From IMG/VR virus record IMGVR_UViG_3300033069_001852: a stretch of 64,000 nt of DNA; one strand, given 5' to 3'. Positions 4,406-35,296 of this stretch are shown here, piece by piece; the stretch's first letter is position 1, and each line of letters starts with the position of its first letter. A program made the position numbers and the translations under genes. Under the pieces are notes generated by a model. It searched no databases. It was not told where the DNA came from and saw only the letters and a program-made list of their open reading frames with translations. This DNA comes from a virus. Taxonomy: Duplodnaviria; Caudoviricetes.

Positions 4406-4421
4406 ATTATATTAATAAGTA

Positions 4422-5360
4422 TCATCCTAATGACTTGGAGACGCCTGCGAACATAGAACCGGAGTATAATACCGTTACGACACAGACCGTGGTCCCAAAC
4501 TGACCCCCAAGTTTATAAGTACAATCGGATATCTGATTGAGTGGCCCGGCGTAAGTGACATTGGAATAATCGTAGGGTGGGAGGGCCAGACCACTACTAC
4601 CTCCGTTCAACGCATAAGAGGCAGTCGTCGCATAGGAAGCGGAGGTGGCTTGAGTTGCGTTGGAAATTGAACCACTAAAATAACTTGCGGTCAATGCGAC
4701 GGATGCGGTGATATTCCAGGTCGAACCCGAAGTAATGACTGCGCCTCCCGAGCCGCCTCCGTTTAACGCATAGGAAGCGGTCAGGGCATAACTCGCGGTT
4801 TGGGCCGTGATCGTAATGGAAGCAGTATCCGCCCAGGACGCAGTAATGGGATATTTTGATCCCGTATTAAGGGTTGTGCCTCCAGGGCTGCTATTTAAAG
4901 CGTAAGATGCGGTCCGGGAATAGGATGCGCTCAACGCATCTACTGACAATGAGGCCGTTTCGGCAAAAGTTGCGCTGAGCGCATAAGACGCGGTATCCGT
5001 AAAAATTGATGTGAGGGCAAGCGGCGCATACTCCGCATAGGATGCGCTATTTGCGACGGAGACATAAGAAGCCGTCCGAGCATAAGAACTGGAAAGGGCA
5101 GCTAAAGAAGCAGAGGCCCATGAGGAAGAGTATTGATAGTAATTGATGACGGCGGAGACGGATGCGCTGGCGACCGTCATTGAGGCGGTAACATCACTAG
5201 TTATTACTGAGTTGCCCGCGGAGCTCGAAGGAATATAAAATACTACATTGCCCAGACCATCCAAGACATAAAGATCCGTGGCCTGAACATATTGTTGTAA
5301 TACATCCTGGTACGAGCGGCTTATGAATTGGTTTGTGAGGTCACGGGACAGAAATCTCAT
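4422..5360 (-). CDS. (S/T)ASYA-repeat fibre-like protein
   Basis: 312 aa with the TASYALNGG and GSKYPITASWA repeats also found in the two giant fibre genes. Confidence 0.65.
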   Translation of the reverse strand: MRFLSRDLTNQFISRSYQDVLQQYVQATDLYVLDGLGNVVFYIPSSSAGNSVITSDVTASMTVASASVSAVINYYQYSSSWASASLAALSSSYARTASYVSVANSASYAEYAPLALTSIFTDTASYALSATFAETASLSVDALSASYSRTASYALNSSPGGTTLNTGSKYPITASWADTASITITAQTASYALTASYALNGGGSGGAVITSGSTWNITASVALTASYFSGSISNATQATSASYATTASYALNGGSSGLALPPYDYSNVTYAGPLNQISDCTYKLGGQFGTTVCVVTVLYSGSMFAGVSKSLG

Positions 5361-5372
5361 ACCTTATAACTA

Positions 5373-5945
5373 TTACGTAATCAAGGATGCCACTTCTTTT
5401 ATCAATTGGTTTTGTCGCTTTGGATCGGAGATTTTGTTAATGCGGAAGTATTCTTTGATAACTTGTTTGAAATTGTTTCGTTTGGAGGTGGCTAGATTTG
5501 AACGATTGATGCCGAATTTGTTCAATACGGTGGTAATTTCAAAAAGCAAACTATCGTTCGGACGGGGTTTTGAACTTACGGGAACGGATACTTTCGGAGG
5601 GGAGATGGAAAGCGTGGGTTTCGTTGGAGTCGTCTGTTCTTTGACTTGGACTTTTAACTGAGTGTGTTCTTCAACGATAAAGTCGTCTTGCCACGGTCGA
5701 AAATAGGTGTCTTCAACTACCACTTCAAGATGTATCTTTCCGGTTACACTTTCCTCTAACAAGCCCCGCAGCCGTTTAATTGGCACGATACATTTGCCAT
5801 TTTTCAATTCTCCACGGAACATCAAATTTAAGCCATCCTGGGCTTCCACGATAATACGGGCAAAAGCATCCTTCAGTGATGCGTTTTTTATTTGAACCGC
5901 ACACTCAAATGTCTCTGCTTTGTCAGTATAAAGTTTGTAAGCCAT
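5373..5945 (-). CDS. Hypothetical protein
   Basis: 190 aa ORF tightly packed and co-oriented with its neighbours. Confidence 0.75.
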   Translation of the reverse strand: MAYKLYTDKAETFECAVQIKNASLKDAFARIIVEAQDGLNLMFRGELKNGKCIVPIKRLRGLLEESVTGKIHLEVVVEDTYFRPWQDDFIVEEHTQLKVQVKEQTTPTKPTLSISPPKVSVPVSSKPRPNDSLLFEITTVLNKFGINRSNLATSKRNNFKQVIKEYFRINKISDPKRQNQLIKEVASLIT

Positions 5946-5946
5946 A

Positions 5947-6270
5947 TTATTCCTCTGCTATAGTTATATCAATTCCCGCTACCGCTTTAATTACCAGTTC
6001 CACGTCTCTGGCATTAACCACGATATCCGTTTTTACTTCTTTCGTCTCATCGTAGCGTGAACCGTCCTTAATCTTACATAACAAGCGAATAAATCGCTTT
6101 TTTTTCTCATTTTCTTCGGCTGGGGTATTAAGCCAATCCGGAAGAAACGGCTTTGCGGAACTTCCAAACCCTTGAATAATGTCCTCTACTAACTGACATT
6201 CACTCCAGGTCCAGTTTGCTAAATCCCACGAAATATCACAATTACCCCAACGGTAACAAAACAAAGCCAT
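5947..6270 (-). CDS. Hypothetical protein
   Basis: 107 aa, first gene of a leftward unit; motif variant CTATTTAT at 6279-6286 (-). Confidence 0.7.
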   Translation of the reverse strand: MALFCYRWGNCDISWDLANWTWSECQLVEDIIQGFGSSAKPFLPDWLNTPAEENEKKKRFIRLLCKIKDGSRYDETKEVKTDIVVNARDVELVIKAVAGIDITIAEE

Positions 6271-6404
6271 ACAATGTAATAAATAGACGGATTACGAATT
6301 AAAATCCAATTTCTCTCTATTACCGAGCAGAGATATTTTGCGTTTACGCATTTCCGCTATGGAATGCTTTTTTAATTGATATTTATAACTGACCCATTTT
6401 CCTT

Positions 6405-7256
6405 ATGAAGACAACCAAAAAACAATTTCACCGCTTGCTTCAAGAAGTCGTAACGGAAGTTATTAGCGAAACCAAACCTTTATTAAATGAAGCCCTTTCT
6501 GCCGTTGTCGCCAAACGGCCGCAGGAAAGTATCGCAGAAGCCCCCCAAAAAAATCTTCCTGGTTCGGAGCCAGACAAGTGGAAAGCTATTTCCGGAGCCA
6601 ATCCATCAAAGCCTGTGAGTAATGACATCCAACAATTTGCTAAAGAATTATTGGAGAAAATTACAGACCGGCAGAGGAAAAAAGGATTTGATGATATGAA
6701 TCTCGGGAACGCTATTCTTGATATGATTAAATTTAAAATGAGCAAGGAGGGTTGGTCAAAAGGCCAATCAGACACCGACGCTCTTCAAGCCAGACGGAAT
6801 GCCGGCGATCCACGGGAAAGCATATCGGAGGGTATGGATGGAGAGAAAGAAGAAAGAATTAGGGCCGAGATGCGAAAATTGCTAAGCCACACTTTTCAGG
6901 AACCATTACTCTCCAAAGCTATAGACGATGCTATCCAGGCTATAAAGGACTCATTGGGCAAAACGAACGAACCATATAAATCTTCAAGTAATTCGGATAT
7001 TATGAAAATGAAGAAGGGATTGGGGTTTGATGTTAAAGATGTACGTGAAGATAGACGAAAAGAGGCTAATGATAAGTTGGAATTTGAAAAATGGCTAAAA
7101 CAGTTTAATCCTGGATTGACTCCGGATAATATTGCTTATGATATTGCGTTTGAGGCTTGGAAGGCGGGAAAAGCAGTTGGTTACAAATCAATTCAAATCA
7201 ATCCCAACTGGATAAAAGAATCCTCCACCGATTTAAATAATTATCAGAAAAAATGA
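6405..7256 (+). CDS. Hypothetical charged protein, possible internal head protein
   Basis: 283 aa; N-terminus MKTTKKQFHRLLQEVVTEVISE; several (L/I/V)-x-E sites; ATATTTAT at 6379-6386. Confidence 0.7.
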   Translation: MKTTKKQFHRLLQEVVTEVISETKPLLNEALSAVVAKRPQESIAEAPQKNLPGSEPDKWKAISGANPSKPVSNDIQQFAKELLEKITDRQRKKGFDDMNLGNAILDMIKFKMSKEGWSKGQSDTDALQARRNAGDPRESISEGMDGEKEERIRAEMRKLLSHTFQEPLLSKAIDDAIQAIKDSLGKTNEPYKSSSNSDIMKMKKGLGFDVKDVREDRRKEANDKLEFEKWLKQFNPGLTPDNIAYDIAFEAWKAGKAVGYKSIQINPNWIKESSTDLNNYQKK

Positions 7257-7876
7257 TTCAACTCACCAACATTTTAAAAGAAGTCTACTTTAATGGCTTT
7301 ACCGTCTCTGAAGCAGCGTCAGAGTTTAGTCGGCCTGAGAATTTCTATAAATACGCAGAAGGTAAGGGTTGGACAGCTTGGCGAGGCGGTAATAACAATG
7401 AAAATGGTTCCACCGCTGCGGCCATCGTTTTTGAGGGTGAGAACAAGAGTCGGATGTGGTTTAAAATCAAATATCCTGATAAACTATCTGAGTTTGTAGG
7501 GAGTTCGGTGTCAGAGAACCAACACGACTATAAGCGCGTTTATCGAGCGGGCAAACGAATTACTAATAAATGGATAAAAGAGGCTTATCGGATTAGAAAA
7601 ACCCCACGTAATTACTCTCCGGACGGGAAACCGATAAAACGCGGATGGCAGGAATGCTTTCAAATGGCTCTGGAGGCGGAGGGATTAAAACCCTATGTGG
7701 AGTCGACCGGCGTCGATTATACCAAATGGCACTCTATGAAAAAAACTTCGGATACTAATTCGGAGGAGAATGACCAAGACACCGATGAAACCGAAGCGAA
7801 TTTTCATAACAAATATGACGCCGAACCGAGCCAGCGGTCTGGATTGTCTTATACCCATTTACCGGATGATAGATGA
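7253..7876 (+). CDS. Hypothetical protein with leader MIQLTNILKE; paralog of 7873-8370
   Basis: ATGA overlap with the upstream gene; shares RxWxxIK...W.ECF..AL.....PY with the next ORF. Confidence 0.75.
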   Translation: MIQLTNILKEVYFNGFTVSEAASEFSRPENFYKYAEGKGWTAWRGGNNNENGSTAAAIVFEGENKSRMWFKIKYPDKLSEFVGSSVSENQHDYKRVYRAGKRITNKWIKEAYRIRKTPRNYSPDGKPIKRGWQECFQMALEAEGLKPYVESTGVDYTKWHSMKKTSDTNSEENDQDTDETEANFHNKYDAEPSQRSGLSYTHLPDDR

Positions 7877-8370
7877 TGATAAAGCTTAAACCATTATTGA
7901 ACGAGTTGTGGTCTCCCGGCGCCTTAACCAACGGCGACGACGAATTGCGTTCTTATCCTTCCGAAACCGTGACTAAACAGGGGGCCCCCGAATGGTTCAT
8001 GGCGCATGGGACTAATGATTGGCACAATAAAAAAGCATATTGCTCCGCATATATCACCGAGACCGGCGGTAAACCAATGCGCATTTGGGTGGAGATTAAA
8101 ACTCGTGGTCTACGCAAACCCAATGATACGCATAGTTCTCATCACGAACGTGTCCGTAAAGCCATTGCGAAAGTATCCCGGGCCTGGTCCGGTGAAGCTA
8201 AGCGTTTAAAAAAGGAAGTCCGCCTTTCAGAAATTGGCAATCGAAGTTATCCCACCTGGAAAGAATGTTTCGTTCAAGCCTTGAAGAGTCAAAAAGTTGC
8301 GCCCTACATCACCGCACAGGGCACGGACGAGGCTGCGATGGATCCCGTCAATTTTACTCCCCGGAGTTAA
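7873..8370 (+). CDS. Hypothetical protein with leader MIKLKPLLNE; paralog of 7253-7876
   Basis: ATGA overlap; RIWVEIK...WKECFVQAL...APY. Confidence 0.75.
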   Translation: MMIKLKPLLNELWSPGALTNGDDELRSYPSETVTKQGAPEWFMAHGTNDWHNKKAYCSAYITETGGKPMRIWVEIKTRGLRKPNDTHSSHHERVRKAIAKVSRAWSGEAKRLKKEVRLSEIGNRSYPTWKECFVQALKSQKVAPYITAQGTDEAAMDPVNFTPRS

Positions 8371-11300
8371 GGCGTGGTAAAAGCAAAAGTGGCATGTACC
8401 CGGACCGCATTCGGGTCGGTTACAAAAGTGGGCGTGACGATCTTCAGCGCAATCCAATCCCCCTGACTCACTGAATATGATCCACTGGCGCTGGCCGTTA
8501 AAAAGGCTGTGCTCCAACTAGCCGAAACCGACAGGCTACCTGTGCCATTAATGTTGGCTTCGTGGTGAACCGATTCGGTGGAACCAAGGGTACCCGTTAC
8601 TAGCACTTTAACTAACATCTGGCGCAACGTGCCGTTAAACGGAATATACATTTTTGCGTTATTGTAAGTCCCGGTCCGATCATCATACCAACCGTAATAT
8701 GCCACCGTGTTATCTGTCACGGTCCATCCCGCCTTGGGGTGCATCGTGTGCATGTATTGCCACGTTGGAGCGTAAGAAGATGAAAGAGAATATGAACTTG
8801 ACGTGGATGTCCCTGTTAAATCTCCAATGAAAACTGAAGCTTTAAACGAACCCGTTGAAGGATTGAAGGAATAGAGGCTTGTACCTCCTCCGTTCCTTGC
8901 CAAGTTTCTGCTGGTACCGGAATCGAAAACGACACCATATTCGGTGTTATCATTACCGATGTCGGTTATCGTAATTGCGCTGGAAGTTTTTGCCCACGAG
9001 GCCGTTATTGGATATAAACTACCGGTGCTTAGTGAGGTAGCCGAACTACCTCCGTTGAGAGCATACGACGAGGTCAACGCATAACTCGCAGAGATATTTG
9101 TACCGCCCCCAACACTCCCCGACACGCCGTAGGTGCCGATGATCTTGGTGCCGTCAACCGAGCGCAACCAAACCACGGCGACGGTGCCTGCCGCAATCGA
9201 AGTCGGCCAGCCTGTGCCAATGTTCAACCAGCTGTTGGGGAAAGTTAAGGAACTGGACCCCGCAGATGAATTGGAAATAAACAATGCCGTATCGGCAATC
9301 TGACCACTACCCGCCAAGTTGCTATGGGTAAAGTTATAAATAGCGGCATTGGTTAAATTGACCTGTTGATTGGCGGTACTGAAACTTGCCGTAACCCATT
9401 TCAGGGAACTGGTGGTTAACAGGGTGAAAGGTTGATAGGAGGTTACCAAGCTTGCCGTGCTGGCATTGGTCGCATACGAAGCCGACACACTGGGACTGCC
9501 CGGTGCGTAAGACGCCGATAAGGCCGTTAATGCGTAGGACGCACTGACACTTACACTGCCTGAAACACTGAACGAACCAATGATTAAATCATTATTAAGT
9601 GACCGCAGCCATAAGACTCCGACGGCATTGGCCGCAATGGTAGTGGGCCAGCCGGAACCAATGTTTTTCCAGTTGCTGGGAAATACAAGGGAACTGGAAT
9701 TAGCCGCTGAGTTGGAAATGAACAGAGCAATATCCGCCACTTGATTGGTGGAGGCTAAATCACTAGCTGTAAAATTATAGGTCGCGGGATTGACCAGATT
9801 GACCAGCTGACTTGGGTTAGTGAAACTACAGGTAATCCAGTTGCCCGAACCCGTGGTTAAAGTGGTGTTGAACTGATAAGGATTAACACTGGAAGCCGTC
9901 AACGCAATACTTGCTGATAGAGCAAATGATCCTGTGCCTTTGAATAATGACGCCGTGATGACCGAACAGGAAATGTTACCCACGACATCCAGCGTATTAA
10001 CCGCAGTTGTACCTCCGATGGTCACCTTGACGGAATCTGCTCCGGTTCCACCAATGACAGCGGTACGACTGGCGCCGACTTTCGCATTGTATCCCAGAGC
10101 AATTGAACGGGTGATTGACAGAGAGGAACTAACCGCATCGGCATTGGTTCCAATCAAAATGGCATAGCTGCTGGTTGGCGCATCGTAACCGGCGTGATAA
10201 CCCACCATTACGGAATTGCCGGCGTTGGTGGCATTGTAACCCGCTCCCGAACCAACTTGAACCGCAGAACCAGCGTTGGTGGAATTCTTAGCGGCATCGT
10301 GCCCGATCTGAACGGCTTGCGATGCGGTGGTTGAATTGCCCGCGGCTTCATTACCGATCTGGACAGCTAAGTCTGAGACGGTGGAAGTTTTGCCCGCCCA
10401 GAACCCAATCTTGACGGCTTGATTTCCATTAACGGTATCTTTGCCCGCTTCATAACCAATCGCAACTTCACCCGAAGATGATACCGTATTGGCATTAACC
10501 CCGTAACCGATCTGAACATTGATGTTGGATTGTTGAGTCTTGGGAATCCCGAACCCGATTTGAACGGAACTGGTATTGATGCTGCCTTGGTGATAACCGC
10601 CGATTGCCATACCACCTGAAGCACTGATAGCGTTCAAGGCCCAACTGGCGGTGATGGGATACAGGCTGCCTGTGCTTAAAGTCGTTCCTGAACCACCATT
10701 CAATACGTACGAAGCGGTCAACGCATAGGACGCGCTTAATGAACTAGAGGCGTAACTTGAGCTTACAGCATTTAAAGAATTAGTTGCCCACAAGCTTTGT
10801 GTGGAGAAAACAGATTGACTGGAATAAACCGAAAAGGCGGATGAAATGGAAGTGAATGAAAAACTGGAAGTAAACGCATAGGACGCCGTGCGCGCATAGC
10901 TTGAGCTTAGCGCATACGAAGCCGAAAGCGCATATGATGCGGAAAGCGCATTAGCGGCTGAGCCAGTTAAGTCACCAATGAAAACCAGGGCTTTAAATGA
11001 GCCAGTTAAGGGATTGAAAGAGAAGATGCTTGTGCCGCCGCCGTTGCGCACTAAGTTGCTGCCCCCGCCATCAAACACGACCCCATAGTCAGTGTTGGGG
11101 TTTCCTATGTCAGTGACGATAACTGCGCTAGCAGTTTTAGCCCAGGAAGAAGTTACCGGATATAAGCTTCCTGTGCTTAAAGTCGTTCCTGAATTCGGAG
11201 CATAAGAAGCGGAAATTGCCATACTGGCGGTAATCGGATACAGGCTGCCTGTGCCGATTGTGCCTTGCTTATTATTAAGCGCCGTGACAATGGAACTGGA

Positions 11301-14300
11301 ATTCCAAAAGCTAGCAGTTAAGGCCCACGACGCGGTAATTGGATACAGAGAACTAGTGCTGAGGGTTGTACCTGAACCGCCGCCATTAAGAGCATAGGAG
11401 GCAGTAATAGCTACACTAGCGGAAACGGCTATGGTTGCCGATCCGGTTAAGTTGCCAATGAAAACTGAAGCTTTAAATGAGCCAGTTGATGGGTTAAACG
11501 CAAATAGGCTTGTGCCGCCGCCGTTCCTTGCCAAGTTTCCACCGGTACCGGCGTCAAACACGACTCCGTATTCGGTGTTGGGATTACCAATGTCGGAGAT
11601 AGTGACTGCGCTTGACGTTTTTGCCCAGGAAGAAGTTACCGGATACAAACTCCCCGTGATTAAACTTGTGCCAGCGCCACCCCCATTAAGCGCATACGAT
11701 GCGGTCAACGCATAGGAAGCACTGACACTTGGCGAACCGGGAGCGTAAGAAGCTGAAATGGCTCGGCTGGAAGTTATGTAATATAGCCCACCAACATTTA
11801 CACCTGAACTGCTGGGTGGGGCAAAAATGTTGTTGAGGGTCGTCATCATCGACCCAGTACCGCTGTCGCCAAAAACATTTATGCGATACCAGTTGTTATC
11901 GTCGTCGGAGTAAGAGTAAATCTGTCCGCCAACGATCTTGGTTTTATCTGAGTCAACTACTGACGCCGTCGCCGTATAGGAAGAGGAAATCGAACTGGAC
12001 CCATTCGTTGTATAACCCGAACTGCCTGAAACGGTAAATGTCCCAATGATATTGCCATTATCCAAGGCTCGTAACCACATCATTCCGATTGTGCTAGCGG
12101 CGATGCTGGTGGGCCAACCCGTACTAATGTTCTTCCAGTTGTTGGGGAAACTTAATGAACTGGTGGCATTGGCGGAATGGCTAATATACAAGGCGAAATC
12201 CGCAATCTGGCCTGTGCTTGGTAGATTACTCTGCGTGAAACTATATGCCTTGGCCGTAGTCAAATTAACCTGTTCATTCGGCGTGGCAAAACTACAAGTG
12301 ATGACGTTCAATGAACTGGTGTTAACCACCGTGTAAAATTGATACGGGGAGACATATGAGCTACTGACTGAACTTCCGTTTAACGCATAAGAGGCTGTTA
12401 ACGCATAACTGGATGATGAACCAATGCTTCCAGAAAAATTCCAAGAACCAATTATAGTTGTGGTGTCAATGGATCTTAACCAGAGAATCCCAACCGTATT
12501 ACCCGCAATAGTTGTTGGCCAGCCACCACCAATGTTTTTCCAATTGGCTGGAAAAGATACGGAACTGGAAGTGCTTGCGGAATGAGAAACAAATAAGGCA
12601 ATATCCGATACATTATTTGCGGTGGAAATATTACTTGCGGTAAATCTATAATTAGTTGCCGCCACTAAATTGATGATCTGACTTGGATAAAGAAAACTAC
12701 AGGTAATCCAGTTGCCTGATCCGGAGGCAATAGTAATGTAATTCTGACTTGGTACAAGATAAGATGCCGTATCCGCTGTCCCTGTTAGATTACCAATAAA
12801 TAAAGTTGCTTTAAATGAGCCAGTGGACGGGTTAAAAGAGAAAAGACTCGTCCCGCCGCCATTGCGCACTAAATCGCTACCACTTGTAAAGACCACCCCA
12901 AATTCGGTATTGGGATTTCCAATATCAGTGATGGTAACCGCCGATGCGGTTTTAGACCAGGACGCCGTGATGGGATACAAGCTCCCTGTGTTCAGGGACG
13001 TTCCTGGGCCTCCGCCGTTGAGCGCATAGGATGCCGTGAGCGCATAGGATGCGCTAACGCTTGGTGAGCCTGGAGCATAAGAAGCTGAAATGGCTCGGCT
13101 GGAAGTTATATAATACAAACCCCCAACGTTTACTCCGGATGAACTCGGTGGCGCAAAGATATTGTTAAGGGTGGTCATCATTGACCCGGTACCCATATCA
13201 CCGAAAACGTTTATGCGATACCAGTTATTGTCATCATCTGAATAGGAATAGATTTGCCCGCCGACAATCTTAGTTCGATCTGAGTCCAAAACTGAAGCGG
13301 TGGCCGTGTATGAACTACTGATTGAACCTGTGCCTCCGGAGCCTCCGTTTAGGGCATATGATGCGGTTAGCGCATAGGACGCACTAAGGCTTGGTGAACC
13401 TGGCGCATAACTCGCGGAAACACAGAAGGCTGCGTCGAGCGCAAAATCGGCAGTCTGAGCGTGTTCCGTGAAAGAAGCAGTTAATGAACTGGACGCCCAA
13501 GACGCACTAATCGCGAGAGAACTTGGTTGGGCTGGGGCCCAGGAAGCACTCAGCGCCCAACTTGCCGTTATAGGATAAGTGGATCCGGTGGTTAATGAAG
13601 TACCACCAGCACCTCCATTTAACGCATAAGAAGCGGTAATTGCGTGGCTGGCAGTCCCGGTCAAATTACCAAGGAAGACGACGGCTTTAAATGAACCCGT
13701 GGAAGGGTTAAACGCAAAAAGACTGGTACCGCCGCCGTTGCGAACCAATTCACCCGCTCCGGTGCCGTTAAACACCACCGGATAATCGATATTCGGGTTG
13801 CCGATATCAGCAATGGTCACGGTGCTTGCGGTTTTAGCCCAGGAAGCCGTGCCGGTTAAATCGCCGATGAAAACCGAAGCTTTAAATGAGCCGGTAGAGG
13901 GATTAAACGCAAATAGGCTGGTGCCACCCCCGTTGGTCAGAAGATCCTGATTAGATTGAAATACGACTGGGTATTCGGTGTTGGGATTACCGATGTCAGT
14001 AATGGTGGTCCGCGAAGACGTTAAGGCTGTTAGAGAACTGGATGCCCAAGACGCTGACCGTGCGTTTAATGAATTAGTAGCCCAGACAGATTGAGTAGCA
14101 TATTGGGCCCAAGTGGATCCTGAAGCGTATGAATTTGACTGGTTGTAAATCGTGACGTTGTAATATTGGTAATAACTTGTGGTTGTCGCATAACTCGCGG
14201 AAAGTGCGGTCGTTGCGAAACTGGAAGTTAAACTGGCGGAGGCCCAGCTGGCGGAAATGCTATAGGAGGCATAAAGCCCGGAGCCGCCCATCCCAATGCT

Positions 14301-14468
14301 ATATTTCGCTGCCCAATCGGTTATTTTGTCGGCCATAATATGGCCAAACTCATCCAAGTAAACAATCGCATCTGACGCGGAAATGTTTATCTGTTCATAT
14401 TTGGTATTCGCATCACTGCGTTGGATGAACACCGCATCCTTGGAATGTACTTGTGGAGTAAAGGCCAT
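8367..14468 (-). CDS. Giant modular tail fibre/adhesin-like protein
   Basis: 2033 aa with SASYA linkers, six DIGNPN..NGGGTSLFxFNP modules, four xITCSF..FPxNWKNI..WLR-type modules and YadA-head-like xQIG repeats. ATATTTAT at 14482-14489 (-). Confidence 0.75.
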   Translation of the reverse strand: MAFTPQVHSKDAVFIQRSDANTKYEQINISASDAIVYLDEFGHIMADKITDWAAKYSIGMGGSGLYASYSISASWASASLTSSFATTALSASYATTTSYYQYYNVTIYNQSNSYASGSTWAQYATQSVWATNSLNARSASWASSSLTALTSSRTTITDIGNPNTEYPVVFQSNQDLLTNGGGTSLFAFNPSTGSFKASVFIGDLTGTASWAKTASTVTIADIGNPNIDYPVVFNGTGAGELVRNGGGTSLFAFNPSTGSFKAVVFLGNLTGTASHAITASYALNGGAGGTSLTTGSTYPITASWALSASWAPAQPSSLAISASWASSSLTASFTEHAQTADFALDAAFCVSASYAPGSPSLSASYALTASYALNGGSGGTGSISSSYTATASVLDSDRTKIVGGQIYSYSDDDNNWYRINVFGDMGTGSMMTTLNNIFAPPSSSGVNVGGLYYITSSRAISASYAPGSPSVSASYALTASYALNGGGPGTSLNTGSLYPITASWSKTASAVTITDIGNPNTEFGVVFTSGSDLVRNGGGTSLFSFNPSTGSFKATLFIGNLTGTADTASYLVPSQNYITIASGSGNWITCSFLYPSQIINLVAATNYRFTASNISTANNVSDIALFVSHSASTSSSVSFPANWKNIGGGWPTTIAGNTVGILWLRSIDTTTIIGSWNFSGSIGSSSSYALTASYALNGSSVSSSYVSPYQFYTVVNTSSLNVITCSFATPNEQVNLTTAKAYSFTQSNLPSTGQIADFALYISHSANATSSLSFPNNWKNISTGWPTSIAASTIGMMWLRALDNGNIIGTFTVSGSSGYTTNGSSSISSSYTATASVVDSDKTKIVGGQIYSYSDDDNNWYRINVFGDSGTGSMMTTLNNIFAPPSSSGVNVGGLYYITSSRAISASYAPGSPSVSASYALTASYALNGGGAGTSLITGSLYPVTSSWAKTSSAVTISDIGNPNTEYGVVFDAGTGGNLARNGGGTSLFAFNPSTGSFKASVFIGNLTGSATIAVSASVAITASYALNGGGSGTTLSTSSLYPITASWALTASFWNSSSIVTALNNKQGTIGTGSLYPITASMAISASYAPNSGTTLSTGSLYPVTSSWAKTASAVIVTDIGNPNTDYGVVFDGGGSNLVRNGGGTSIFSFNPLTGSFKALVFIGDLTGSAANALSASYALSASYALSSSYARTASYAFTSSFSFTSISSAFSVYSSQSVFSTQSLWATNSLNAVSSSYASSSLSASYALTASYVLNGGSGTTLSTGSLYPITASWALNAISASGGMAIGGYHQGSINTSSVQIGFGIPKTQQSNINVQIGYGVNANTVSSSGEVAIGYEAGKDTVNGNQAVKIGFWAGKTSTVSDLAVQIGNEAAGNSTTASQAVQIGHDAAKNSTNAGSAVQVGSGAGYNATNAGNSVMVGYHAGYDAPTSSYAILIGTNADAVSSSLSITRSIALGYNAKVGASRTAVIGGTGADSVKVTIGGTTAVNTLDVVGNISCSVITASLFKGTGSFALSASIALTASSVNPYQFNTTLTTGSGNWITCSFTNPSQLVNLVNPATYNFTASDLASTNQVADIALFISNSAANSSSLVFPSNWKNIGSGWPTTIAANAVGVLWLRSLNNDLIIGSFSVSGSVSVSASYALTALSASYAPGSPSVSASYATNASTASLVTSYQPFTLLTTSSLKWVTASFSTANQQVNLTNAAIYNFTHSNLAGSGQIADTALFISNSSAGSSSLTFPNSWLNIGTGWPTSIAAGTVAVVWLRSVDGTKIIGTYGVSGSVGGGTNISASYALTSSYALNGGSSATSLSTGSLYPITASWAKTSSAITITDIGNDNTEYGVVFDSGTSRNLARNGGGTSLYSFNPSTGSFKASVFIGDLTGTSTSSSYSLSSSYAPTWQYMHTMHPKAGWTVTDNTVAYYGWYDDRTGTYNNAKMYIPFNGTLRQMLVKVLVTGTLGSTESVHHEANINGTGSLSVSASWSTAFLTASASGSYSVSQGDWIALKIVTPTFVTDPNAVRVHATFAFTTP
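8824..8888. repeat. 65-nt perfect inverted repeat, partner at 27270-27334
   Basis: Compared base by base; encodes GGTSLYSFNPSTGSFKASVFIG in both fibre genes. Confidence 0.85.
10759..10823. repeat. 65-nt perfect inverted repeat, partner at 25437-25501
   Basis: Compared base by base; encodes SSQSVFSTQSLWATNSLNAVS in both fibre genes. Confidence 0.85.
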
Positions 14469-14546
14469 ACTTATTCAATGGATAAATATGACTGGGTCAG
14501 ACCTTTTGAAGAAAAGTTATAATGGTTGCGGCCATGGTTTGAAAAA

Positions 14547-15083
14547 TTAAAGTTTAAAATAAGAATATTCCTCCACAATTGGAGAGTAATAGAGGGTATC
14601 AATTTTCACAGAAATCCGCTGGGGAGTTAGATTAAAAACAAATTTCCCCTTCTGGACATAGGCCAAGGTCAAGTGGGGATGATAGACAGGATATTCATCG
14701 TGGTTAGGAAATTTTGAAAATTGTTCGTGTAAACGGGTTAATTGAGGGGCTCGAACATCAAATTTTACCACATCATAATCGGGATTATTATCAAACAGAC
14801 TCAATTGGATCAAATCGATGTTGAAGGGTTTGACGCCTTTCAACACACTCCGGATTTGGAGTTCATTCAGGTCGGGTTGAAATCCATATTTAACCGTGAC
14901 ATGCGGCTCTTTTTCCCGCCCAAACTCACTTCCTTTCACATATAAAATGGAATCGGAGATAATCCGCTGGTTAAAATTTATAAGCTTTTGCGCGGAAGTT
15001 CCGGTTACCCGAGCCATAAGGCAACCATAGGAGTTGGAGGGACCCGCAGCTTCCGTCAATAATTGGCGATAGGAGATGTTCAT
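14547..15083 (-). CDS. 2H phosphoesterase (T4 gp57B/Acb1-like, or RNA 2',3'-cyclic phosphodiesterase)
   Basis: Two HxT motifs, PHVTVKYG and NHDEYPVYHPHLTLAY. Leader MNISYRQLLTE. Confidence 0.85.
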   Translation of the reverse strand: MNISYRQLLTEAAGPSNSYGCLMARVTGTSAQKLINFNQRIISDSILYVKGSEFGREKEPHVTVKYGFQPDLNELQIRSVLKGVKPFNIDLIQLSLFDNNPDYDVVKFDVRAPQLTRLHEQFSKFPNHDEYPVYHPHLTLAYVQKGKFVFNLTPQRISVKIDTLYYSPIVEEYSYFKL

Positions 15084-15271
15084 GGGGTAAATGTTCTTTC
15101 GGCTAAATGTTTCAATCTATCTTCCATCTTAGAAGAAACCAGCAAACAATCCGCGTCCGTCCACATTTCATACGGATTATCGTGGATATTTCCAAAAATA
15201 TGTTCAAGCGGAAGAATTTTAAATCCCTTTTTCGCCAAGGCCATGGAAATGTTTTTAGTTCGCTGTGCCAT
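15080..15271 (-). CDS. Small ORF or remnant resembling the C-terminus of the 40683-44366 paralog family
   Basis: KGFKILPLE...EMWTDADCLLV compared with NGFKLVTIE...EVWTDSPALLI. Fills the gap in the operon and overlaps both neighbours. Confidence 0.5.
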   Translation of the reverse strand: MAQRTKNISMALAKKGFKILPLEHIFGNIHDNPYEMWTDADCLLVSSKMEDRLKHLAERTFTP

Positions 15272-16703
15272 TTTCCAATTCCTTTCGTATTACCGCTAGA
15301 GCTTCCTCACGGCTGACGCCCGGATTCTCATACCACATATCAGTGACCTTACCCAATAGTTCAGTAAATCTTGGTCCAGGTTTAATACCCAGTGCGATCA
15401 AGTCATGCCCATTAATTGGCAGTTGGGGTTTTTTCTTAATCAAGTTCATATCCAAGGTGGCCAAACGAGCCTTGATCAATTTTATTTGATTGGGCATAGC
15501 CGACGCATCCGCATGCGCAGTATTATCCGCGTGGATCAGATCCAAAGTATCCTCCAACTGCTCACCCATATCTACCCGGAATTTTCGTAAAGCTTTATCG
15601 CTGATATCCGCAGAGTCGCCGGCACCCTTTAGGCGCATATGATTTTCCACGCCCTTACATACGGCGTCAATCAATTCCGTGGGATATTTCAACCGGGTCA
15701 TTACGATCCGGGTTATTTTGGCGCCTTCGTCTTCATGCCGATAAAAATGAACACCCGTTGGTGTCACTGAGCGGGTCACGGTTTTACCTATGTCGTGAAA
15801 TAAAGCCATTAAGCGTTGAATTAATACCGGGTTCGTCTTGCTCAAAACTTCAAGGGTGTGGTCAAAGACATCGTGTTTATGATGAATGTTCTGGGTCATT
15901 TTGATGGCCGGGATCAATTCAGGAATTGTATACGGCAACAAACCAACTATCCTCAACAATTTAATGGCTCGGTGGGGCGACCCCGTCTGGAGCATTTTAT
16001 TCAGTTCATCCTTAATGCGTTCTTTGGAAATGATTTCCATCCGCGGCGCATTTTTCTTGATGGCCCGGATCATAAACATCGGCAAATCCCAATTATACTT
16101 TATGGTAAATCGAATGGCCCTTAGCATGCGCAACGGATCGTCGCTAAAAATCTGATCAGGCTGGATTGCGGTTTTGACAATTCCCCGCTTGATGTCTTCA
16201 ACCCCATGCCCCGTCAGATCCAAAATTTCACTGGTGGTTAAATCTTTCAATAAAGAATTGGTGGTAAAATCACGCCGTTCGGCATCGTCCCGCATAGTGC
16301 CATGCGAAACGGTCGGATTGCGACTATTGGGATCATCATAAGTTTCTTTGCGGGGCATGACAGCTTCAATATCCAAGTCGGATAAATCCTGACCGTTATG
16401 TTTCACCCCACGCAGATTAAATTTAGCCGTGCCATATTTGCTCGCAATGACAGGATTACTGCCCTGTTTATAGGCCCCAACTTTTTTGGTGATCCAATCG
16501 GAAAATTCCACTCCGCCATTGGGTTTGTTGACGACCAGGTCCAAATCTTTAGCATCCACTCCCATTAATTCATCTCGTACTGCGCCACCGGCTAGATACA
16601 CACGACCTTCCCACTCTGTTCCTTTTATTGTTTTAGATAAAAAATCTAATGCTGCCTTTTCTACTAACCCCTCATTTATCAAATTTTTAAGATTGACATC
16701 CAT
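15255..16703 (-). CDS. cca: Class II CCA tRNA nucleotidyltransferase with HD domain
   Basis: GGAVRD..DLD, RRDFTTNSL, DDPLRMLRAIRF, SKERIKDEL, HD motif LFHDIGK and tail INGHDL..GIKPGP. Leader MDVNLKNLINE. Confidence 0.93.
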   Translation of the reverse strand: MDVNLKNLINEGLVEKAALDFLSKTIKGTEWEGRVYLAGGAVRDELMGVDAKDLDLVVNKPNGGVEFSDWITKKVGAYKQGSNPVIASKYGTAKFNLRGVKHNGQDLSDLDIEAVMPRKETYDDPNSRNPTVSHGTMRDDAERRDFTTNSLLKDLTTSEILDLTGHGVEDIKRGIVKTAIQPDQIFSDDPLRMLRAIRFTIKYNWDLPMFMIRAIKKNAPRMEIISKERIKDELNKMLQTGSPHRAIKLLRIVGLLPYTIPELIPAIKMTQNIHHKHDVFDHTLEVLSKTNPVLIQRLMALFHDIGKTVTRSVTPTGVHFYRHEDEGAKITRIVMTRLKYPTELIDAVCKGVENHMRLKGAGDSADISDKALRKFRVDMGEQLEDTLDLIHADNTAHADASAMPNQIKLIKARLATLDMNLIKKKPQLPINGHDLIALGIKPGPRFTELLGKVTDMWYENPGVSREEALAVIRKELENGTAN

Positions 16704-17451
16704 AAGACAATTCTTCTTTCTTGGTGTGGTCAGGCCCTAATAAAAAATTATAATTCCACCCCTTTTCTTTACAAAATTCAATAGCGACTGTTGCCTTCTT
16801 TATATCCACCGATTTTATCCAACCTTTTATCTCTTCAATTGTATTTCCATTTACAAAAAAATCTGGTACATAATATGTTTTCAATCCATTCTCACTAATA
16901 TACGGAATTCTTATTTTATGTTTCTTTGTCCAAGATATTCTGTTTTCATCATACCACTTCATTCTTTTTAATTCATACGAACTATCATACCACTCTTGTT
17001 CACCATTATCTTTTACATAAAATCCAGTTTTCCAATTATTCTTAATGGTGTATTTTCCTTCTGATAGTCGTTTCGTATATGTATTCGTTCTTTTTTCTAT
17101 TCCTTCTGGAGTTTTCCAGTGATTGGATAATAACATCCGATTTCGAATAGCCTCTCTTCTCACTGGATTATTACATGCTGTTTTTTGTTTTTCTTTTATT
17201 TCTGGACAATTCATCGGGTTGTTTATAGATAACCACTCTCTAAACTTTTTTCGTTTTGATGGATTTTTATCACCCAGAAATTTAGCGGCGACTTCCGGTT
17301 TTTTCATCGGATTAGCACATGAACGACATCTTTTTTGTTTTTTTCTTGATGAATAGTAATTGGACTTTGTTGAGTATGGCATGTCTGTTCCACATGATGG
17401 ACATTCTTTTATCCAATATACCTTACCATTTATTATTTGTGTATTAATCAT
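16687..17451 (-). CDS. Free-standing homing-endonuclease-like protein (Zn finger plus PD-(D/E)xK domain)
   Basis: CPSC and CRSC pairs, NPMK/NPSK/NPMN repeats, SSYE...YVPDF...EIKGW. Visibly more AT-rich than its flanks. Confidence 0.75.
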   Translation of the reverse strand: MINTQIINGKVYWIKECPSCGTDMPYSTKSNYYSSRKKQKRCRSCANPMKKPEVAAKFLGDKNPSKRKKFREWLSINNPMNCPEIKEKQKTACNNPVRREAIRNRMLLSNHWKTPEGIEKRTNTYTKRLSEGKYTIKNNWKTGFYVKDNGEQEWYDSSYELKRMKWYDENRISWTKKHKIRIPYISENGLKTYYVPDFFVNGNTIEEIKGWIKSVDIKKATVAIEFCKEKGWNYNFLLGPDHTKKEELSYGCQS

Positions 17452-18467
17452 AAACCGCCCTTTAAAAATTCCTGCGTTTTAGTAATCAATTCCGTTTCAG
17501 GAACCGCATCTAATTGGTCGCCATAAATAGACTGCCAAAAGGCTTTAATTTTACCAATCATCGGGCCGGGCTTTACTTCCGGAAAATTGCGCATTAACCA
17601 TTCGCCGCCGTATTTGGATTTAATCACCGTTTTGTTGTTAATCTTTTCAATTTCCGATTGTAATTTTTGATAATAATGGGGGAATTCTTGTTTTAGGAAA
17701 TAATCCTCATCTTCAATTTTTCTGGTCTTGTTCAAGGCTACTAATCCGTTTCTAATCGCTATTGCCGTTGGGCGACCAGGTCGGCTGCGTTTACGATCTC
17801 CGTGGTTCATTCCACTATCCGCCACTTGCCGACTATCAAACAAATCGCTGGCGGCAATAAAATCAACAATGTCTTGAACGGTTTGAATTTGATCAAACGT
17901 ATTTAGAACTTGCTTATAACCAAGAATGACAAGGCCCTCTCGCAAATTCCTGGTTAATAAGATTTCATTATTTCTATCACTTTTATCTTTGTAAATCTTA
18001 AAAAAGCCTTGGTTACCGTATTTGTAATTTAATTTTCGAGAGATAATACCAAGGATACCACTGAAGTCGTTGTATGATAGATAATCATAATTTGCCGCAA
18101 ACTCATCTTCGGACGACATAATAAAATCGACATGAACCGTTTTGTTCACGGTGGGGTTCTTGTAAAGCACACTATGAATATTTCCATTTTTACTATAATC
18201 AATCATGTATGAACCCAAGAATTGTTTTAACGTATTGTAAACATGTTGATTGCCACATGCGACAATATCAATATCGCCGTGATCGGCTTTGGTGGGTAAG
18301 GCCCGGCTCAATTGGAACTTTGAAAATTTATCCCCCAGCCGTTTCTGTAAATCTCCAAAAATGATATTCATGTCCGCAGTCGTCACCCGTTCGGCTCGGG
18401 GGCCGAACAATTTCCCACCTTCTTTAAGCGCGGGAATGCTTTCCACTATAGCTTTCAACTTAATCAT
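17448..18467 (-). CDS. Pol-beta-superfamily nucleotidyltransferase with CCA-like C-terminal tail
   Basis: HGDIDI and VHVDFI catalytic-type aspartates; tail KYGGEWLM..VKPGPMIG. Start moved to the ATG at 18467 (MIKLKAIVES), which gives an ATGA overlap. Confidence 0.7.
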   Translation of the reverse strand: MIKLKAIVESIPALKEGGKLFGPRAERVTTADMNIIFGDLQKRLGDKFSKFQLSRALPTKADHGDIDIVACGNQHVYNTLKQFLGSYMIDYSKNGNIHSVLYKNPTVNKTVHVDFIMSSEDEFAANYDYLSYNDFSGILGIISRKLNYKYGNQGFFKIYKDKSDRNNEILLTRNLREGLVILGYKQVLNTFDQIQTVQDIVDFIAASDLFDSRQVADSGMNHGDRKRSRPGRPTAIAIRNGLVALNKTRKIEDEDYFLKQEFPHYYQKLQSEIEKINNKTVIKSKYGGEWLMRNFPEVKPGPMIGKIKAFWQSIYGDQLDAVPETELITKTQEFLKGGL

Positions 18468-19420
18468 ACTAGTTTTAAATATTTTCCGTAATCCCACGGT
18501 TGTTTGTGATACCGTTTCATAAAACTGTGAGCCGTCAAACTAAAATTCATTCCGGCTAGTTTGTCTTTATAAGATTCATACCATTTATGACCAATCTCAA
18601 ATCCCACGGAAATCTGACTATATTTACCTAAATTTTCCTTTTGGCCAGAATGGATATCATCCACGCTTTTCATCATTGCCGTCCGGACCGTTTGGGGTTT
18701 TATTTTCAAGCCTTTTCTCAAATAACCCTTGGCCTCTGTTTTGCTAAGCCCACCATCCTCCTCCAAGTCTGAAAATAAATACTTTTTTAACTTGTTAAAC
18801 ACAGACATTTCCCGCTCGGTGGGCTGGCCGAAATCTTTTGAATATAATTTAAACCAAAAAAATAGAACGCCGGCTTCTGTTACTTCATAAGTTTTGTTGG
18901 GTTGGATGCGCTTATGTGAGTCGTCGATTATTTCAATTACTACCGCTGATTCGGACAGAATTTCAACATCTTCCCGCTTTGCTTTTTTTCCATCATTTTT
19001 CCAATACAATTCCGCTAAAAAAGGATCAATTTCCCACTCTAAGCGTTCCGGTCTTTCCTTGGCTATGCGCCTAATTTCTTCAAAATTAGGATTGTCGCGG
19101 TCGAATTTTTCGTGGAACTCATCGATTAAAGTAGAATTAGCTACATGGATTTTACCCCGGGGCTTAACGACATATAGAATGCCTTTGTCAACAAAGCGGC
19201 TCCGGGGAATAACCGATGAGTAGACGCAGTTTAAACGACTGGGTTTATCGGAAAAATGCTTCCGCCGATAAAATTCCAAACCAATTTCTGAAGGAATGTT
19301 TTCCAACCAGTGTTTTCCATCCTCACTACGTTTGGATTTGATCAAATCTCCAACGGTCATCGGATAATTAGAACGATGGTAGAGCGTTACATTTTCACTG
19401 ATTTCCGTTAGGATTTTCAT
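18464..19420 (-). CDS. DUF2441-like putative ADP-ribosyltransferase-fold protein
   Basis: LYH...VGDLI, EFYRRKHFSDKPSRLNCVY, LYVVKP, YW...EDVEIL. Leader MKILTEISE. Confidence 0.55.
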   Translation of the reverse strand: MKILTEISENVTLYHRSNYPMTVGDLIKSKRSEDGKHWLENIPSEIGLEFYRRKHFSDKPSRLNCVYSSVIPRSRFVDKGILYVVKPRGKIHVANSTLIDEFHEKFDRDNPNFEEIRRIAKERPERLEWEIDPFLAELYWKNDGKKAKREDVEILSESAVVIEIIDDSHKRIQPNKTYEVTEAGVLFFWFKLYSKDFGQPTEREMSVFNKLKKYLFSDLEEDGGLSKTEAKGYLRKGLKIKPQTVRTAMMKSVDDIHSGQKENLGKYSQISVGFEIGHKWYESYKDKLAGMNFSLTAHSFMKRYHKQPWDYGKYLKLV

Positions 19421-19956
19421 CTCCGTTTCCTATAATCTAAACATTTTCTGTTTTCACCCGCTTGATTTTTGTAATTTTTCACTGGCAAACCAACAGCCTC
19501 CAACTTTTTCCAGGCAGCGGAAGCTTCATCCGCTTGTAAAGACGATGCGTGTAAACACATATTTTTTTCCGCCAACCACATTGCTCCCGCAATATAAAGA
19601 ACATAACCGATTCCATTCCTCTTATAATTTTCTTCTACTTTAATAAAATCAACAACGGGACAATCAACCCAATGATAGTAAAATTTCTTATATTCTTGGT
19701 TCAGATATCTGTCGGTAAAAGCTTCGTTAAAATACTTCTGGAAAGCTTCTTTATTTGGGAATACTTCCCAGAACTTTTTGTCAGCGATGTAATCCATCTT
19801 CAGATATCCAATCTTTTTTCCGTTGAGATGCGCTTCAACTAATGATTGAGCCCAAGTATTTCCATCTCCCCGTGTAGACATGTTTTCAGAATATTTGAAT
19901 TCTATGCGCCCCAACTTTGATTTGGCATACTTTATTTTCTTTTCGTTGAGATTCAT
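19417..19956 (-). CDS. GNAT-family acetyltransferase
   Basis: Motif A VDFIKVEENYKRNGIGYVLY and ASAAWKKL. Starts MNLNE. Confidence 0.75.
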   Translation of the reverse strand: MNLNEKKIKYAKSKLGRIEFKYSENMSTRGDGNTWAQSLVEAHLNGKKIGYLKMDYIADKKFWEVFPNKEAFQKYFNEAFTDRYLNQEYKKFYYHWVDCPVVDFIKVEENYKRNGIGYVLYIAGAMWLAEKNMCLHASSLQADEASAAWKKLEAVGLPVKNYKNQAGENRKCLDYRKRR

Positions 19957-20483
19957 TTTAAATACCTGTCTTGAAATAATTTATTTCGCCGTGTCAATTC
20001 TGTGCCGTTCGCAAACCGCCGACATTCTTTCTTCGCTGCCGCCCAATCACCGTTTAATACGGCTTTGGTAAATTTGGGAAATTTATCCAATGAACCCAGA
20101 TTAAAAGCGAATTCTGTCAACATTTCCGATTGTTTAGACGAAAGCGGAATTTTAACCCCCAACTTAGACATATACTGCTTTACCACCCTCTGTGCTTGTT
20201 CCAGATCCTTTTTTAGTAATTTTTCCGCTTCACCATCGGTTATACCCGCAGTTAATCGACGTAATTCATCCTGGGCTTGAATTTTATGTCCCCAGGCAAT
20301 GGTGGGTAAACCACCCTCAAATGATTTGTGAGGATACCAACGTCCATCTCTAAAACCGGCTTTCGCAGCGTTCTCCAGATTTTTTACAAATTCTATAAAA
20401 TCGGAGGAGAAATTTTCCGCCGGTTGAATTTCCGCTTGGGGCATGTCAATCGCTTCCTCCAGTATTTTTTTCAGAGATATCAT
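19953..20483 (-). CDS. GH24 (phage-type) lysozyme
   Basis: LEN...GGLPTIAWGH, EAEKLLKKDL, FAFNLG, FPKF, LTRR. Leader MISLKKILEE. Confidence 0.85.
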   Translation of the reverse strand: MISLKKILEEAIDMPQAEIQPAENFSSDFIEFVKNLENAAKAGFRDGRWYPHKSFEGGLPTIAWGHKIQAQDELRRLTAGITDGEAEKLLKKDLEQAQRVVKQYMSKLGVKIPLSSKQSEMLTEFAFNLGSLDKFPKFTKAVLNGDWAAAKKECRRFANGTELTRRNKLFQDRYLK

Positions 20484-20489
20484 CGTTAA

Positions 20490-20538
20490 ATAAATATAGG
20501 TCGGTTATCTGCGATTACACCCAACATTGTATATTTAT
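20490..20538. promoter_or_regulatory. Divergent pair of ATATTTAT putative late-promoter motifs
   Basis: 20490-20497 (-) heads the lysozyme-to-2H operon and 20531-20538 (+) heads the neck operon. Representative of 16 exact copies at gene starts. Confidence 0.65.
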
Positions 20539-34756: not shown

Positions 34757-35296
34757 ATGATATCCATTGTCCCACCCAATAGTCTGGCTAAAAAATATGA
34801 CCGAATAATCTTCTGTGATTTAGACGGCGTGCTTGTCGATTTTAAACAAGGGGCATTAAATTTAGGCGTGGATATTGGCGGACAGGACAAACCGCACCCC
34901 AATGAGGACAAGCTTTGGCAGGCGGTTGATGCTTATGGTAAGGATAAATTTTTTGCTAATCTACCGTGGATGCCCGACGGCCAGCAACTCTGGCGTTTTA
35001 TTAATGAAAATTTCTTGGATGTAAAAATTTTAACCGCATTGGGTAAGTCGGACAAAAAGGACAATCTGACTCGCAAGGGCAAAGGTGAATGGTTACAAAA
35101 AAACATTCCCGAGCTTCGTTTGCGGAACGTTCATATGGTCCCCAATAAACACGCCAAAAAACATTATGCTAGTCCAGGAGATGTCTTGATCGATGACACG
35201 GATATATGTATCAATGAGTGGTTAACGAAGGGTGGAATCGGAATTTTACATAAAAATACCCAAGAAACAATACAGAGGCTGGCTAAATTAATATGA
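34757..35296 (+). CDS. HAD-family 5'(3')-deoxyribonucleotidase-like protein
   Basis: CDLDGVLVDF, LPWMPDG, ILTA, LIDD, GGIGILH. Confidence 0.88.
   Translation: MISIVPPNSLAKKYDRIIFCDLDGVLVDFKQGALNLGVDIGGQDKPHPNEDKLWQAVDAYGKDKFFANLPWMPDGQQLWRFINENFLDVKILTALGKSDKKDNLTRKGKGEWLQKNIPELRLRNVHMVPNKHAKKHYASPGDVLIDDTDICINEWLTKGGIGILHKNTQETIQRLAKLI

Follow-up and report, generated by a model that had tools for sequence, protein, structure and literature searches.

A leader-tagged enzyme operon of a T4-related myovirus as a probable head-loaded cargo cassette

Why would a phage begin several unrelated enzymes with versions of one short peptide? The question is raised by an operon in a 64,000-nucleotide stretch of viral DNA (Caudoviricetes; IMG/VR record IMGVR_UViG_3300033069_001852), hereafter the window, in which eight co-directional open reading frames (ORFs) occupy the minus strand from 14547 to 20483. 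A first-pass annotation had described them as leader-tagged enzymes forming a late-expressed, packaged counter-defence cassette. Our analysis suggests that a T4-related myovirus uses the operon as a late-transcribed cargo cassette, whose tagged enzymes would be loaded into the head, cleaved and ejected; judging from sequence and from analogy with T4, we give this reading a probability of roughly 0.68. Four of the eight products carry a clear leader (a slash marks the predicted cut):

19953 to 20483, minus strand: ORF1, GH24 lysozyme, 176 residues; leader MISLKKILEE/A, residues 1-10 (20454-20483)
17448 to 18467, minus strand: ORF4, PolX-like nucleotidyltransferase, 339 residues; leader MIKLKAIVE/SIPALKE/GGKLFG, residues 1-16 (18420-18467)
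15255 to 16703, minus strand: ORF6, class II CCA-adding enzyme with HD domain, 482 residues; leader MDVNLKNLINE/G, residues 1-11 (16671-16703)
14547 to 15083, minus strand: ORF8, 2H phosphoesterase, 178 residues; leader MNISYRQLLTE/A, residues 1-11 (15051-15083)

How unusual is such a leader? A strict form of the motif, [LIM]-x-x-[LIV]-[LIVM]-x-E within the first 16 residues, occurs in 9 of the 53 proteins of the window, compared with 0.2 expected from internal positions (p 5e-13). A position matrix, trained on the leaders of relatives only and then applied to the window proteins, selected 13 of them at p <= 0.005; proteins of the sheath, tube, baseplate and fibres were all absent from this set. 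Within the operon, the lysozyme scored highest (19.3), followed by the CCA-adding enzyme (13.2) and the 2H phosphoesterase (11.0; all three at p <= 0.003), the nucleotidyltransferase (6.6; p 0.02), a protein with an ADP-ribosyltransferase (ART) fold (3.3; not significant) and a GNAT-fold protein (-2.3). Six products bearing the leader or a shortened form of it had been claimed at first; four are clear, the ART-fold protein retains a truncated remnant, and the GNAT-fold protein, a 63-residue ORF and an inserted gene (ORF5) have none. A leader on the GNAT-fold protein was rejected on its matrix score and because the N-termini of its family are untagged.

The families of the tagged enzymes show where the leader ends and how faithfully it is kept. 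Despite its modest matrix score, the nucleotidyltransferase leader is validated by the N-termini of its family (at least 195 members): nearly all sampled homologues begin MIKLMDLLKE and pass directly into an invariant GGKLFG, the tag thus abutting a conserved mature N-terminus. All six CCA orthologues (49-86% identity) are either tagged themselves or fused downstream of a tagged N-terminal region, as in a 782-residue protein of contig L002 and a 1233-residue protein of the 735-kb phage LR756501, whose group uses its own leader dialect, MI-x-KFK-[IL]-FE. The 2H homologues are tagged in the window and in three relatives (L027, L030 and L037) and untagged (beginning MNRHVEKGCLMA...) in about 15 relatives and the phage LR756508; because the same enzyme occurs in both forms, the tag has been gained or lost as a module.

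Does this lineage possess the machinery to use such a tag? A Logan contig (L022) that is 100% identical to window positions 401-8370 carries a Gp23 capsid gene (PF07068) about 8 kb to the left of the window, and a relative with an 83% identical capsid protein (L025) encodes a Peptidase_S77 (60.5 bits). S77 and Gp23 are likewise present in LR756501 and in the 484-kb LR756508, where both exceed their cutoffs. Neither was found in contigs L001-L004; these are 17-49% complete, so this negative is no evidence of absence. A capsid-protein search in IMG/VR retrieved more than 600 relatives on contigs of up to 369 kb. Flavobacterium phage immuto, the nearest cultured relative (capsid 58% identical), has an annotated S77 protease and the same scaffold and capsid motifs.

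The capsid and scaffold proteins themselves carry the [LI]-x-E motif of the tag at the cleavage positions of T4 gp23 and gp22. The LR756508 capsid protein contains LLKE/A, which aligns with the T4 gp23 maturation site E65/A66, and in close relatives the capsid protein has KQLIEE/A near residue 62 and the scaffold protein starts MINSELLKE/A. The T4 proteins gp22 (MLKEQLIAE/A) and gp24 (MAKINELLRE/S) have N-termini that resemble the window tag. Furthermore, tagged genes in relatives cluster beside the capsid, scaffold and protease genes, and genes near the immuto head locus have tag-like starts, including one annotated as a deoxyribonucleotidase.

Gene order is partly preserved among relatives: L027 and L030 have tagged operons that hold the CCA and 2H genes with other tagged genes between them, L104 has the nucleotidyltransferase gene followed directly by the CCA gene, and a more distant contig (P0117) has a cluster of nucleotidyltransferase, ART-PolyVal-like and CCA genes. 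The nucleotidyltransferase-CCA pairing and the CCA-2H operons therefore recur, and ORF5 is missing from the L104 junction. Further tagged cargo in relatives includes GNAT and phosphoribosyltransferase proteins above cutoffs, and ART-PolyVal and Tpt1-like matches that are sub-threshold.

Together, these features suggest a route modeled on T4. The leader would act like the T4 capsid targeting sequence (CTS), taking the protein to the prohead's scaffolding core; cleavage after Glu by an S77 (gp21-type) prohead protease would then remove it; and the mature enzymes would remain in the head and exit with the DNA at infection, the ART-fold protein being a possible parallel to T4 Alt. In T4, IPIII needs no more than its first 10 residues for incorporation into the head, and the gp21 protease removes them; fusion to the CTS leads to the packaging and delivery of foreign proteins; the ADP-ribosyltransferase Alt is packaged, processed and ejected; and the CTS may allow related phages to package varied proteins (PMC3012670, PMC9026906). 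The packaging proposed in the first-pass annotation is thus well supported by comparison (the logic of tag and cut site, a lineage with Gp23 and S77, and the retention of the tag by orthologues), and the lysozyme, CCA-adding enzyme, nucleotidyltransferase and 2H phosphoesterase probably travel in the virion and are injected.

Would the enzymes actually leave with the DNA? The leader could instead be a cleaved, prohead-targeting propeptide on enzymes that act in head maturation, or that are sequestered or activated late, and are then degraded or expelled. Most T4 core proteins and propeptides are indeed cleaved and leave the head, a late-activated lysozyme would suit lysis, and many tagged proteins would have to compete for a limited head volume. 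However, the T4 proteins with a single CTS (IPI-III and Alt) remain in the head and are ejected, and enzymes acting on RNA ends would be without a substrate inside the prohead. The CCA-adding enzyme, moreover, has kept its tag across lineages, which speaks for selection on a function of the packaged form and makes this alternative unlikely.

When would such a cassette be transcribed? Two copies of a promoter-like box stand in the region upstream of the operon:

20490 to 20497, minus strand: promoter-like box ATATTTAT, 14 nucleotides before the first ATG of the operon
20531 to 20538, plus strand: second ATATTTAT copy, facing a divergent neck-gene operon

As first described, the eight ORFs overlap one another, five junctions being 4-nucleotide ATGA overlaps and two being overlaps of 17 nucleotides; the nucleotidyltransferase gene, fourth in order, starts in the ATGA at 18467 (MIKLKAIVES...), and an upstream GTG at 18497 is not used. 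The single motif reported ahead of the operon was also borne out, with exactly one ATATTTAT copy on the operon strand in this region. Across the window this box occurs 23 times, compared with 7.0 +/- 2.7 expected, and none of 100 shuffles reached 23. About 15 copies lie 7-48 nucleotides upstream of gene starts in the orientation of the gene, and the genes so preceded include those for sheath, tube, fibre, gp13-like neck and baseplate-hub proteins as well as several tagged genes. The box also stands upstream of tagged genes in two relatives (L027 and L031) and upstream of the sheath gene of immuto. Within the operon, neither sigma-70-type promoters nor intrinsic terminators are enriched. Because there is one structural-gene-type box and no such enrichment of internal promoters or terminators, it is fair to infer that the operon is a single transcription unit under a promoter of the structural-gene type. 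The late expression claimed for it is supported indirectly, by a promoter-like box that it has in common with the structural genes.

The neighboring 2033-residue fibre protein (8367-14468, minus strand), which consists of repeated modules (SASYALTASYALNGG and NGGGTSLF.FNPSTGSFKA), has a ATATTTAT copy of its own at 14482-14489. In L025, adjacent Gp23-type paralogues (9467-11260 and 11368-13524) with near-identical N-terminal propeptides are likely a gp23/gp24-like pair, and the second is preceded by the box. Throughout the window, gene starts are without Shine-Dalgarno sequences and lie in A/T-rich contexts; because of this, and because the nearest cultured relative infects Flavobacterium, the host is probably a member of the Bacteroidota. 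No match of the window to known phages was found at the DNA level.

Could the shared N-terminus have arisen in enzymes that never enter the head? The operon might be a cytoplasmic late module for RNA repair or tRNA maturation, with the N-terminus spread as a recombination or translation-start module. Jumbo phages commonly encode CCA-adding and 2H enzymes, which genomic surveys of these phages list among functions for cytoplasmic RNA repair (PMC7824862). Many 2H homologues work untagged, and ATGA coupling forces an A at the start of codon 2, favoring I, K or N. The codons, however, are free to vary and the peptide is kept: 66% of identical aligned leader residues are encoded by different codons. 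For this reason the leader is conserved as a peptide and not as RNA, and a role as an mRNA or translation signal was rejected. In addition, the motif has at its end the Glu-type cut site of the capsid and scaffold proteins, is present on no tail protein under the same promoter box, and in the large nucleotidyltransferase family ends exactly where the conserved mature protein begins. Taken with these observations, a purely cytoplasmic module is quite unlikely. Very improbable, lastly, is a leader that addresses some other destination or partner (a membrane, a phage compartment or a chaperone) rather than the prohead core: as a short amphipathic helix, the tag belongs to a common type of interaction motif, and its capsid location is deduced from comparison alone, but it has no hydrophobic core or lipobox, its genes cluster with head genes in relatives, and it closely resembles the cleaved N-termini of T4 gp24 and gp22. 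A secretion signal was rejected on the same absence of a hydrophobic core.

Several further genes bear on the distribution of the leader. Four tandem leader-tagged paralogues (40683-44366, plus strand) have no Pfam match; their homologues form tagged arrays directly after the LR756508 capsid gene, and one follows the L104 CCA gene. A P-loop kinase (AAA_33, Zeta-toxin-like; 44386-45108, plus strand) carries the leader at its likely true start, MVKLAELVMNE/S, and its ATG lies only 4 nucleotides from the end of a ATATTTAT copy, oddly close for a promoter. About a dozen small proteins around the LR756508 S77 protease (L017, 152400-163000) begin with a second class of leader, which is longer (MK..KLRxIIxEE[IL]K..), and two proteins of the window, with starts at 6405 and 57757, resemble this class. 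All of these may be scaffold-core proteins comparable to T4 gp67 and gp68. A HAD-type DxDGVL start is common to a window gene at 34757-35296 (plus strand) and the immuto gene (L103 2355-2954) whose annotation is 5'-3' deoxyribonucleotidase. The N-terminus is tag-like in the immuto protein (MKKVMGNLADLLLE/E) and untagged in the window copy, which may be a further case of tag gain or loss.

If the tagged enzymes are head-loaded cargo, what is being loaded? The lysozyme assignment proved correct, ORF1 matching the GH24 family PF00959 at 51.3 bits (gathering score 22.3); in L040 a lysozyme of this type forms the C-terminal domain of a tagged 439-residue protein adjoining the capsid gene. ORF6 is, as proposed, a CCA-adding enzyme with an HD domain, and Pfam (PF01743, PF12627, PF01966 and PF13735) places it in class II; with GGAVRD, DLD, RRDF, DDPLR, HHKHD and HDIGK, its head and HD motif sets are complete. 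Our literature searches turned up no CCA-adding enzyme reported as virion-borne. One candidate paper was set aside because it concerns a toxic early nucleotidyltransferase-like protein.

For ORF4, Pfam models gave no match to 32 members of the nucleotidyltransferase family, and the assignment comes from structure. Its AlphaFold2 model (predicted local distance difference test score, pLDDT, 88.5) has residues 1-20 disordered and detached from the fold. The modeled palm and thumb match Pol beta, lambda, mu, TdT and the PolX of African swine fever virus (ASFV) with Z-scores of 11-12.4 over about 170 residues, compared with 8.6 at most for generic nucleotidyltransferases, and the carboxylates in GDID and HVD are invariant in the family. 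The predicted structure accordingly upholds the claimed nucleotidyltransferase and points to a Pol-beta fold. The aligned part comprises model residues 14-200; ORF4 lacks the fingers and 8-kDa lyase domains that canonical PolX enzymes have, and the remainder is an unrelated helical domain. Since only palm and thumb align, ORF4 would not be a canonical family X member, and its model resembles minimal PolX enzymes such as that of ASFV. The C-terminal helical domain contains a KPGP..GK motif within an 18-residue segment common to the nucleotidyltransferase and CCA tails (pairwise E 0.003), a weak hint of tRNA binding that may serve as a lead rather than as evidence.

ORF8 is the 2H phosphoesterase that had been predicted: it matches PF13563, the generic 2_5_RNA_ligase2 model, at 38.2 bits and has the two 2H motifs, HVTV at 61 and HLTL at 137. 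It also matches the Acb1 model PF23474 at 27.2 bits (cutoff 27.0), over profile positions 60-140 of 144, which is the C-terminal half only. In the structure atlas, ORF8 has TM-scores of 0.79-0.83 to viral 2H clusters and falls in a clade between LigT-like and Acb1 models; in its nearest clusters, 28-63% of members match Acb1, and LigT-like and Acb1-like annotations are mixed. A sequence search of the PDB with ORF8 gave no match.

The remaining four products of the operon are less uniform:

19417 to 19956, minus strand: ORF2, GNAT-fold protein, 179 residues; no leader
18464 to 19420, minus strand: ORF3, ART-superfamily protein, 318 residues; truncated leader MKILTE/ISE (19394-19420)
16687 to 17451, minus strand: ORF5, homing-endonuclease-like insert, 254 residues; no leader
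15080 to 15271, minus strand: ORF7, 63 residues, translationally coupled on both sides; no leader

The start of ORF3 is read as a truncated remnant because most of its homologues have the full leader, beginning MIKLSHLLLE/QLLSE/IS. The protein comprises a DUF2441/BC2332-like N-terminal domain (residues 8-166) and a small beta-rich C-terminal domain; its homologues carry PF10386 (DUF2441), and ORF3 itself falls below the Pfam cutoff. The AlphaFold2 model (pLDDT 84.5) matches BC2332 (2AUA) with a Z-score of 9.5 (root-mean-square deviation 2.7, 125 aligned residues, 24% identity), Arr with 5.1, and Tpt1, pertussis S1, DarT, diphtheria toxin and scabin with 3.2-3.7. Pfam places DUF2441 in its ART clan, and BC2332-like proteins are a SCOP family of the ADP-ribosylation superfamily. 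Given these modeled matches and placements, the description of ORF3 as ART-like holds at the level of the predicted fold. Its sequence conservation gives Y14, H15, R16, S17, S61, R62, Y83 and E153 as invariant residues.

ORF2 has no Pfam match, and its profile found no sequence match in the PDB. Its structure model in the atlas reaches TM-scores of 0.50-0.58 to Acetyltransf_1 clusters, and the R-x-x-G-x-G motif is present at RNGIGY; the GNAT fold claimed earlier therefore has moderate support, and the leader claimed with it does not stand. ORF7 has no homologue in the related loci that were fetched.

ORF5, a gene that the first-pass annotation had left unnamed, combines a zinc ribbon with CxxC pairs, four NUMOD3-like NP repeats and a PD-(D/E)xK TnsA-N-like nuclease, with matches to PF08722 (27.3 bits, cutoff 26.5) and phrog_15427. 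It is absent from the nucleotidyltransferase-CCA junction of the closest relative, L104, in which both flanking genes are 86% identical. Because it has nuclease and repeats, yet is missing from the same junction there, ORF5 is by its sequence a homing-endonuclease-like, selfish insert outside any cassette function. Elsewhere in the window, a 536-residue gene (38341-39951, minus strand) has a zinc-ribbon-like N-terminal start, and copies that are 36-40% identical are inserted beside protease and capsid genes (twice in LR756508, once in L025); it has the look of a mobile homing-type element directed at the neighborhoods of head genes.

What could the injected enzymes do? A role in healing RNA 3' ends would, as we infer from the domains, fit the conserved linkage of nucleotidyltransferase and CCA genes, the presence of the HD domain and the frequency of the 2H partner, and the counter-defence role first proposed for the cassette is plausible. 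More speculatively, an injected nucleotidyltransferase-CCA pair, often accompanied by the 2H enzyme, would repair RNA 3' ends, chiefly the CCA of tRNA, ahead of phage gene expression; alternatively, the 2H enzyme could degrade cyclic-nucleotide immune signals. Damage of this kind is known, since toxSAS/CapRel effectors pyrophosphorylate tRNA CCA ends (PMC9712102, PMC11559606) and MenT effectors extend them (PMC11541572). It is possible, though doubtful, that a large uncultured T4-related clade preloads its capsids with a tRNA 3'-end repair kit, using a portable 10-residue tag, and that the kit enters the cell by injection along with the DNA. In such a kit, a CCA-adding enzyme with an HD phosphatase would be joined by a minimal PolX-like nucleotidyltransferase whose tail is CCA-enzyme-like and, often, by a 2H phosphodiesterase; the kit would reverse toxSAS/CapRel-type pyrophosphorylation, MenT-type extension or nuclease trimming of CCA ends before phage gene expression. 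If true, it would be the first tRNA repair system carried in a virion.

A number of observations weigh against the cargo reading or the functions attached to it. Head loading, cleavage and ejection are, for this phage and its close relatives, deduced by comparison, and the S77 protease gene is seen in relatives only. The residue that follows the Glu of the leader is variable (A, G and S, and also V, L, T and D). The operon is not uniformly cargo, since three of its eight genes are untagged and the ART-fold gene has a remnant only, and a lysozyme delivered to the cytoplasm would have no obvious use. As for function, the tRNA-repair and anti-CBASS roles (CBASS, the cyclic-oligonucleotide-based antiphage signaling system) are read from domain identity only, and the Acb1 match of ORF8 is borderline at its cutoff. 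No RNA ligase, kinase or tRNA gene was seen in the operon, and neither the window nor five related loci contain tRNA genes.

If the tag works as in T4, the loading of enzymes into the head would be a general and modular route in a very large uncultured clade and no peculiarity of T-even phages. RNA repair or counter-defence would then be timed to the instant of DNA entry, and virion cargo could be predicted from genomes alone by a sequence rule. Because immuto is cultured and has the same features, the idea is directly testable.

How does the proposed cassette compare with known systems? The mechanism is already known from the T4 CTS, and the new element is the enzyme cargo and its organization in an operon; the surprise lies in the cargo, because the T4 literature anticipates the packaging of varied proteins by a CTS. 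Like the T4 proteins whose tags gp21 removes (IPI, IPII, IPIII and the Alt propeptide), those described here have an N-terminal tag of about 10 residues ending in [LI]-x-E, placed on unrelated proteins within a mosaic, fast-changing locus, and the lineage has an S77 protease, a Gp23 capsid protein and a scaffold, with one ART-fold cargo candidate to set beside Alt. In contrast to the T4 CTS, the window tag reads MIKLKxLLxE, nearer to the gp24 propeptide MAKINELLRE, and is known here from genes alone. The cargo consists mostly of mid-sized enzymes (CCA-adding enzyme with HD domain, PolX-like nucleotidyltransferase, 2H phosphoesterase and lysozyme) rather than the small basic proteins of T4, and tagged genes are far more numerous, at least 13 in 64 kb.

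The giant phages phiKZ, SPN3US and 201phi2-1 likewise cut many head-internal proteins C-terminal to Glu with a gp21-related protease (gp175/gp245) and deliver enzymes such as a virion RNA polymerase with their DNA, as is proposed for the cargo here. They belong to another lineage, however, and have long and variable propeptides, an S/A/G-x-E cut motif and no uniform 10-residue tag. The polyvalent injected proteins of phages and conjugative elements described by Iyer, Aravind and co-workers contain similar ART, GNAT and 2H-type domains, some of them degrading nucleotide signals, and are proposed to enter with DNA against host defence; relatives of the window phage similarly fuse the CCA-adding enzyme and other domains into one tagged protein. 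Unlike those giant multidomain proteins, the window enzymes are separate, each with its own tag and, as proposed, T4-type head loading.

Comparison of single enzymes is equally two-sided. ORF6 has all the head-domain and HD motifs of class II enzymes of the E. coli Cca type; in E. coli Cca, the HD domain acts both as a 2',3'-cyclic phosphodiesterase and as a phosphatase. Unlike E. coli Cca, ORF6 has a tag of the head-loading type, lies in a structural-type, putatively late operon, and is coupled to a PolX-like nucleotidyltransferase. ORF8 and T4 Acb1 (gp57B), an anti-CBASS 2H phosphodiesterase, are both viral proteins with a 2H fold and two H-x-T/S motifs; in ORF8 the match to the family model is partial and the generic 2H model scores higher. 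No CTS is known on T4 Acb1, whereas ORF8 begins with the same kind of leader as the lysozyme, the nucleotidyltransferase and the CCA-adding enzyme of its operon.

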